From positions 1 through 40,991 of the IMG/VR virus record IMGVR_UViG_2896607866_000004: DNA of 40,991 bases; one strand, 5' to 3'. How positions within the stretch are numbered: the first letter of the stretch is position 1; every line of letters starts with the position of its first letter. The position numbers and the translations under genes are program-made. The notes below the pieces were generated by a model that saw nothing but the letters and a program-made list of their open reading frames with translations, was not told the origin of the DNA and ran no database searches. Shown piece after piece: positions 37,293 to 37,858 of this stretch. This DNA comes from a virus. Its lineage: Duplodnaviria > Heunggongvirae > Uroviricota > Caudoviricetes.

Positions 37293-37858
37293 GTGGAAAT
37301 TAAAAAAATCATTAATCCCCGTTATACCGAAAGTGGCGCAGTAGACTGTGACGTTTTTTTTTTGACGACAGGGACCAGGCAGTCCCCTACACAGCCACCG
37401 CTGATGATGTCGCACCGACGGGTCAGCGAATCTGGCAGGAACTGCAAAGTGGCAAATGGGGTGAGATAGCCCCATTCACTGTGACACCAGAAATGCTGGA
37501 AGCGGCCAGAGAGGCCAGACGTCAGGAAATTGAAGCATGGCGCACAGAACAGGAGGCGAAGCCGTTCACGTTTGAATGGAACGGTCGTATCTGGAATGCT
37601 GGCCCCGACTCACTGGGCCGCCTGTCCCCGGTAGTCATGCTGGCAAAATCCGACATTGTACGGGACGTGATGACGTGGGGTGATGCCGATAATCAGCAGG
37701 TGAAACTGTCGATGCCGGAACTGGAAGAACTGGCCACAGCGATGATACAGGCCATTGTTGAGCGCAACGATGAGATTTATCGCCGTCAGCGTGAAATGAA
37801 AGAGGAGCTGAGCGGTCTGGATGATTTGGCTTCAATTCGGGCGTTTGACGTTGAGTAA
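37293..37858 (+). pseudogene. tail-fibre-region gene (possible fibre assembly/chaperone-like) split by a frameshift in a T10 homopolymer
   Basis: GAGG SD and GTG 37293 give MEIKKIINPRYTESGAVDCDVFF…; the frame shifts at the T run 37354-37363; the other frame (open from 37352) reads …DDRDQAVPYTATADDVAPTGQRIWQELQSGKWGEIAPFTVTPEMLEAAREARRQEIEAW… to 37858. A T run of 8 or 11 would restore one ORF of about 188 codons. Confidence 0.45.

Follow-up and report, generated by a model that had tools for sequence, protein, structure and literature searches.

The locus described here raises the question of why two reading frames, which together would encode one phage protein, meet at a run of ten T. The first-pass annotation had left two answers standing, namely that a fibre-assembly-type gene has been inactivated by slipped-strand mutation (or is phase-variable), or that the homopolymer was sequenced wrongly. 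We considered these readings, together with a possible rescue of the frame during expression, in a 40,991-nt stretch of viral DNA (Caudoviricetes), referred to in full as the window.

The sequence and its translations confirmed that a frame starting at GTG 37293, behind a good Shine-Dalgarno sequence, meets at the T run a second frame that continues to 37858. The features of the gene are as follows.

37281..37285, plus strand: Shine-Dalgarno sequence GAGGA, read directly, 7 nt before GTG 37293
37293..37469, plus strand: 5' fragment of the DUF4376 gene, 58 codons, GTG 37293 to TAG 37467-37469
37354..37363, plus strand: T10 homopolymer, read from comparison with related loci as a +2 insertion relative to an ancestral T8
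37364..37858, plus strand: 3' part of the DUF4376 gene, out of frame with the 5' fragment, by translation DDRDQAVPYTAT...AFDVE, then TAA 37856-37858

The GAGGA shares bases with the TGA that ends the upstream fibre frame (37280-37282). By direct reading, the ten T are the frameshift site: translation of the 5' fragment gives 23 authentic codons (VEIKKIINPRYTESGAVDCDVFF), followed by 35 codons out of frame and the terminal TAG. The second frame is open from within the T run through the TAA and holds the entire DUF4376 domain. Because T10 shifts the frame after codon 23, the window has no uninterrupted frame of ~187 aa at this locus, which is a pseudogene of the DUF4376 family. In-silico repair to T8 gave a single ORF of 187 codons and to T11 one of 188, with early stops for T9, T10 and T12. 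The earlier statement that either 11 or 8 T would join the frames therefore holds for both lengths, but the ancestral length was 8 and not 11 (see below).

Runs of A or T of at least 10 nt occurred twice in the whole window (37354-37363 and 9194-9203), against 0.16 expected per window from dinucleotide-preserving shuffles. The run at 9194-9203 forms the U-tail of a minus-strand hairpin resembling an intrinsic terminator (CGGGC-TTT-GCCCG, then T10), just downstream of the minus-strand ORF 9230-9925. For the run in our gene, a consensus scan also flagged a weak hairpin ahead of it (37337-37350; five pairs, one of them G-T) as a candidate intrinsic terminator. A designed terminator was rejected at this site, as the stem is so short and occurs in intact T8 alleles too.

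The identity of the gene was evaluated from its T8-repaired product. This product matched Pfam DUF4376 (PF14301) with 64.2 bits over residues 70-175, where the gathering cut-off is 25 bits, and PHROG 1141 ('tail fiber protein') over its full length from residue 1 (E = 5.5e-87). There were 43 matches in BFVD at E <= 0.001, many of them named DUF4376. A search of 5.8 billion proteins returned 1792 relatives, typically 187-188 aa long in E. coli, and PF14301 was present in all of the 120 that were listed. We take GTG 37293 as the start because the PHROG 1141 match runs full length from residue 1 and an alignment of 23 relatives showed a conserved N-terminus (M-x-I-K-x-I); the N-terminus of the 5' fragment agrees with both. 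The AlphaFold model of the product (pLDDT 88.6) has a helical body with beta-hairpins.

The gene lies directly after the side-tail-fibre gene (fibre stop at 37280-37282, start at 37293), and the same order of fibre and DUF4376 genes is repeated in enteroinvasive E. coli (EIEC) and at many Shigella loci. In Alteromonas phages, experiments identified the DUF4376 proteins gp27 of V22 and gp9 of A5, whose genes directly follow the fibre gene, as tail-fibre chaperones; gp27 is required for folding or trimerisation of its cognate fibre, which is not active without it (PMC7289586, PMC10579305). The window gene resembles these two proteins in its C-terminal DUF4376 domain, its length (~190 aa) and its place right after the fibre gene; it differs in being frameshifted, and the N-terminal halves probably differ as well. 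A putative accessory or chaperone partner of a lambdoid side tail fibre is thus a fair description of the product, given its family membership and position, and the earlier wording of a 'fibre-assembly-type gene' was apt on the same two grounds. In a phage database, the gene region had no close relative, with a best match of 80-82% identity over the 3' two-thirds only, so that no infective phage with the exact module was available for comparison.

To place the T run in its ancestry, we relied on related bacterial loci. Megablast of the region against 5,426 complete E. coli genomes located the whole region at ~95-96% identity in ten genomes, all ten of which have an intact annotated DUF4376 CDS. 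Three of these, orthologous EIEC loci, were fetched, and all three carry T8 and are otherwise nearly identical to the window around the run (~95-96% identity over the gene region, 97.8-98.6% over 5-7 kb). A 7.2-kb alignment of the window with two of them (L001 and L002) contained no more than three indels, namely the +2 in the T run, a difference of 3 bp at 36758 and the loss of 4 bp from a GACT repeat of the window. Since the EIEC orthologues are T8 and so few indels separate them from the window, it is the window that has acquired two T in an ancestral T8.

The coding content of the run agrees with that polarity. The ancestral codons are GTT TTT TTT (Val-Phe-Phe), and the T8 product aligns ungapped to the 23 homologues, with D-V-F-F-D-D against a consensus of D-V-L-F-E-G; protein homologues in general mostly have V-L-F-E-G at this position. 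In Salmonella and soil MAG homologues the run is interrupted (GTG CTG TTT and GTG CTT TTT, both V-L-F), and among the loci fetched an uninterrupted T run was found only in Shigella/EIEC copies. T11 was rejected as the ancestor on two grounds: it would add a Phe found in none of the 23 homologues, and no T11 allele was present among 53 loci.

The genes around the locus follow the late-region order J, lom, fibre, DUF4376, a 59-codon ORF, a terminator-like hairpin and a convergent ipaH gene.

35871..36932, plus strand: 5' fragment of the side-tail-fibre gene (phage_tail_N domain; Pfam PF08400, E = 1.2e-48), truncated by a frameshift
36919..36926, plus strand: (GACT)2 repeat, against (GACT)3 in intact EIEC fibre genes, from alignment with L001 and L002
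36929..37282, plus strand: 3' fragment of the side-tail-fibre gene, a 117-codon ORF, from alignment and translation
37858..38037, plus strand: 59-codon ORF, invariably after the DUF4376 gene (PHROG 7784, E = 1.7e-44)
37974..37995, plus strand: terminator-like hairpin (nine pairs, seven of them G-C) with a T-rich tail, candidate end of the late/tail unit, from a consensus scan only
38038..39681, minus strand: intact ipaH-type type III secretion effector gene, 547 aa, LRR and NEL E3 ligase (Pfam NEL E = 1.8e-76, LRR_TTSS)

The fibre gene is itself broken. Its ATG at 35871 matches the start of the EIEC fibre CDS, and the loss of one GACT unit has shifted its frame and split it into the 5' and 3' fragments; re-insertion of GACT gave a 471-aa ORF that is 96% identical to the 470-aa EIEC fibre. 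The same 117-aa product of the 3' fragment was present in 194 blocks of the public collection, Shigella contigs among them. As the (GACT)2 lesion was found in most Shigella copies fetched, T8 copies included, the fibre lesion may have come before the T-run lesion; alternatively, it may have spread by gene conversion between copies. Upstream of the fibre gene, a second terminator-like hairpin (35834-35855; eight pairs, then TTTT) is located between lom and the fibre ATG, within an artificially extended 367-codon ORF that starts at 35829. At one further locus (L047 660-2501; GCA_900448095.1), the fibre and DUF4376 frames are fused in a single 613-aa ORF with T8.

The ATG of the 59-codon ORF overlaps the TAA of the DUF4376 gene. 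Its product bears a weak resemblance to Caudo_TAP and was present in 1460 blocks of the collection. The ipaH gene beyond it, whose EIEC orthologue is annotated as ipaHe, reads as cargo of the prophage and is transcribed towards the fibre module. The DUF4376 gene, the 59-codon ORF and an ipaH gene convergent with them were found together as a trio at many chromosomal ipaH loci of Shigella and EIEC (L039-L059), with ipaH variants of 547, 571, 583, 587, 603 and 608 aa, and the DUF4376 and 59-codon ORF pair stands beside every chromosomal ipaH locus fetched. The trio persists where an insertion sequence (IS) sits directly upstream and the fibre gene is gone, and the DUF4376 frame is mostly open there. 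More generally, T8 with an open DUF4376 frame is retained in the majority of Shigella copies, even beside a broken or IS-replaced fibre gene. Such open frames beside a dead fibre could mean that the protein is still of some use, or that there has been too little time for decay. On the far side of ipaH, the window holds a gene for a class I SAM-dependent methyltransferase (39997-40665, minus strand, 222 aa) and the C-terminal remnant of a Caudo_TAP tail-fibre assembly gene (40722-40991, plus strand), whose EIEC orthologue is a partial pseudogene; the remnant is probably a leftover of an earlier fibre module.

The prophage as a whole has lost more than its fibre, and two copies of an IS3-family element are present in the window.

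20166..21433, minus strand: IS3-family element, 1,268 bp, from comparison with phage PhiR47_1 and BLAST of the window against itself
7055-8320: inverted twin of the element (Pfam HTH_Tnp_1 and rve), the two copies being 99.5% identical

The ORFs of the element encode 100 aa (HTH_Tnp_1) and 272 aa (rve). The copy at 20166-21433 stands in place of Rz, the small and large terminase genes, the portal gene and the 5' end of the protease gene. Set against PhiR47_1, a functional phage, the window resumes after the lysozyme gene only at codon 120 of the head protease/scaffold gene, the first 119 codons being missing, and an ORF survey of the whole window found no ORF of terminase or portal size. With Rz, terminase and portal and the beginning of the head protease gene lost to this IS-linked deletion, the Shigella prophage is predicted to be unable to make particles. 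Each of the tail genes from Z to J, and lom as well, still reads through in a single full-length frame, so the decay of the prophage appears partial and recent.

Taken together, the locus is in our assessment very probably a slipped-strand pseudogene of a ~187-aa DUF4376 protein, in a lambdoid S. flexneri prophage under relaxed selection. An ancestral T8 has gained two T, presumably by replication slippage. Translation from GTG 37293 thereby leaves its frame after codon 23 and stops at 37467-37469, before the DUF4376 domain. The mutation was probably tolerated because the fibre gene is frameshifted and the prophage is unable to make particles, which would leave the gene without remaining work; relaxed selection would thus be the reason why the lesion persists. 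The client fibre is already dead by loss of its GACT unit, in a particle-defective prophage whose neighbouring ipaH effector gene has been kept intact. The lesion and its direction, its recurrence in related copies, the family assignment and the decayed context were each established by the analysis, and the slipped-strand inactivation named in the first-pass annotation is the reading that we retain, now with a DUF4376 product and a +2 expansion of T8.

A familiar parallel is phage lambda PaPa, in which stf was split into two ORFs by a frameshift in the laboratory strain; the phage is viable and uses only gpJ. In both cases a small frameshift kills the side-tail-fibre module of a lambdoid phage, with the other tail genes intact. 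The window prophage differs in that it was hit in both the fibre and the accessory gene and also has no packaging genes.

The T run varies among related copies, as the comparison of run length across isolates that had been proposed for this locus revealed. Thirty-three loci were fetched regardless of run length and form the base of our unselected counts: 29 were T8 (~88%), three T9 and one T7. With T10, four alleles (T7, T8, T9 and T10) are thus found among related copies. A 41-aa peptide that only T9 alleles can encode was present in 192 blocks of the collection, and T9 was found in all 10 loci shown for this peptide (eight assemblies, five ipaH contexts). When the flanks alone, excluding the run, were placed on a neighbour-joining tree, T9 occurred on several backgrounds and T7 on another, and T10 grouped with a T8 allele of the same genome. 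This points to the tract as a hotspot of recurrent and independent slippage, with some alleles spread by gene conversion.

Among the alternatives, the one that survives best is that the gene is leaky, a 'pseudo-pseudogene' in which part of the expression is rescued, giving a 188-aa product (V-F-F-F-D-D) and some chaperone. We regard this as unlikely. The frame would be regained if RNA polymerase added one U on T10 or if ribosomes slipped by -1 at U UUU UUU. In many bacteria, transcription tends to slip on runs of at least nine A or T, and the frameshift lengthening of an 8-nt run can leave a gene partly functional, with S. flexneri mxiE as a programmed example (PMC1088944). The likeness to the 'pseudo-pseudogenes' of Baranov et al. 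2005 (PMC1088944) lies in an 8-nt run lengthened to a slippage-prone 9 in many Shigella copies and to 10 in the window; the difference is that restoration here is only putative and that the restored product would have no intact client fibre. The DUF4376 gene was not among the entries of the supplementary tables of that study (PMC1088944). Likewise, a T run joins overlapping frames in mxiE (of the same organism) and in IS orfAB programmed slippage, but their two-frame layout and run length are conserved and required, whereas here T8 is the norm and T10 a rare derived state.

Of the features of a recoding site, a slippery sequence is present in the window (T10, with U UUU UUU in the zero frame), but the two-frame organisation and the run length are not conserved among homologues, most copies being a single ORF with T8 (29/33 unselected). 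Nor did we find a convincing stimulatory structure downstream of the run: the following 77 nt had a fold z-score of -1.68, with 12 of 200 shuffles folding as well, and the sole candidate was a 5-bp hairpin 7 nt after the run. Moreover, a rescued chaperone would find no intact partner at the window locus, where the client fibre gene is frameshifted, and its additional Phe would fall within a beta-strand that is confidently modelled. Some RNA-level rescue at T10 is physically plausible, though it would have no evident function as the client fibre is dead. A more elaborate version, in which T9 and T10 alleles would be 'pseudo-pseudogenes' tuned down through RNA polymerase slippage, with the pair of DUF4376 gene and 59-codon ORF co-opted for an ipaH-linked role and no longer for phage assembly, seems to us highly improbable.

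That the T10 is a homopolymer error of sequencing or assembly, the true sequence being T8 and the gene intact, we consider very unlikely. Consensus sequences built from long reads are notoriously unreliable at long homopolymers. Over its last 9.5 kb, the window is 100% identical to CP024470.1, whose proteins, like those on UGYQ01000001.1, carry the name Shigella flexneri in their source records. The 121-aa product of the downstream ORF was located by look-up at two loci in each of these genomes, one of each pair beside a 547-aa ipaH gene and the other beside a 583-aa one. T10 and (GACT)2 were found in all four copies. A systematic miscall is therefore unlikely, given that T10 is seen at two loci in two separate assemblies and T8 was called at a third paralogue in both. 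The T8 copy that we compared (L018) is identical to the T10 alleles over 400 bp before and 660 bp after the run (1,060 bp). An error would also need to add two bases, as opposed to the usual single-base miscall, and over 7.5-9.5 kb the two assemblies are separated by substitutions alone, with no indel. The T9 and T7 alleles in many other assemblies indicate that the site does mutate.

On the other side, the 58- and 78-aa products specific to T10 were absent from a collection of 15 billion proteins, an absence that is uninformative as gene callers skip the short ORF even in known T10 loci. The same T10 at two long repeat copies of one assembly could also partly reflect cross-mapping of reads during polishing. 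The paralogous prophage copies within each S. flexneri assembly (L004-L007) share five strain-specific substitutions.

Window 32204, 33976, 34916, 37603 and 38195: strain-specific substitutions (L004-L007)

These shared substitutions suggest gene conversion between copies, or read cross-mapping in polishing. In two of the four copies (L006 and L007), J was annotated as a pair of products (771 and 368 aa) and not as a single 1159-aa one.

The weakest reading is true phase variation, with the T tract as a contingency locus that switches the fibre-chaperone gene at high frequency; it is not supported, and we give it the lowest probability of all the readings considered here, since T10 is unchanged at both loci of two assemblies whose copies differ by five shared substitutions, and the fibre and head genes are destroyed. 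That unvarying run of ten T is what the first-pass annotation had associated with a fixed pseudogene. The tract does lie inside a coding sequence, it has lengths of 7, 8, 9 and 10 among Shigella copies, and homopolymers can make phage receptor-binding genes phase-variable, an example being the polyG tracts in Campylobacter phages described by Sorensen et al. 2021 in the account given in PMC10579305. As far as that account goes, those polyG genes share with ours a length-polymorphic homopolymer in a gene of the host-recognition module, and they belong to infective phages with high-frequency switching and a host-range phenotype, whereas the window tract belongs to a defective prophage, has an inactivated fibre neighbour and is stable between two related strains. 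Of the features of a contingency locus, a hypermutable repeat in the coding sequence is present, but a tract-length difference between close relatives (4/4 T10), conservation of the repeat across homologues and a selectable ON/OFF phenotype (fibre frameshifted, no terminase or portal) are absent. The two full-length homologues examined beyond Shigella and EIEC have an interrupted run, plain T8 accounts for ~88% of unselected copies, and switching would have no phage phenotype with the fibre and head genes dead. To our knowledge, runs of T8-T10 in mismatch-repair-proficient Escherichia are not known to switch at the rates of contingency loci.

The slipped-strand pseudogene that we favour is nothing new in kind, as homopolymer-slippage pseudogenes of decaying Shigella prophages are already known, and slippage rescue, if true, would add one more case to a known category. 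For annotation, the locus should be labelled as a frameshifted pseudogene of DUF4376 (tail-fibre chaperone family) and not as two hypothetical ORFs. As its length varies from T7 to T10 between isolates and between paralogues, the T tract could be of minor use for typing, and it is a caution for variant callers and for pseudogene counts. With two adjacent genes of one module each lost at a simple repeat (T8 to T10 and (GACT)3 to (GACT)2), the window offers a small and clean example of the decay of a Shigella prophage around a retained virulence cargo gene, ipaH.
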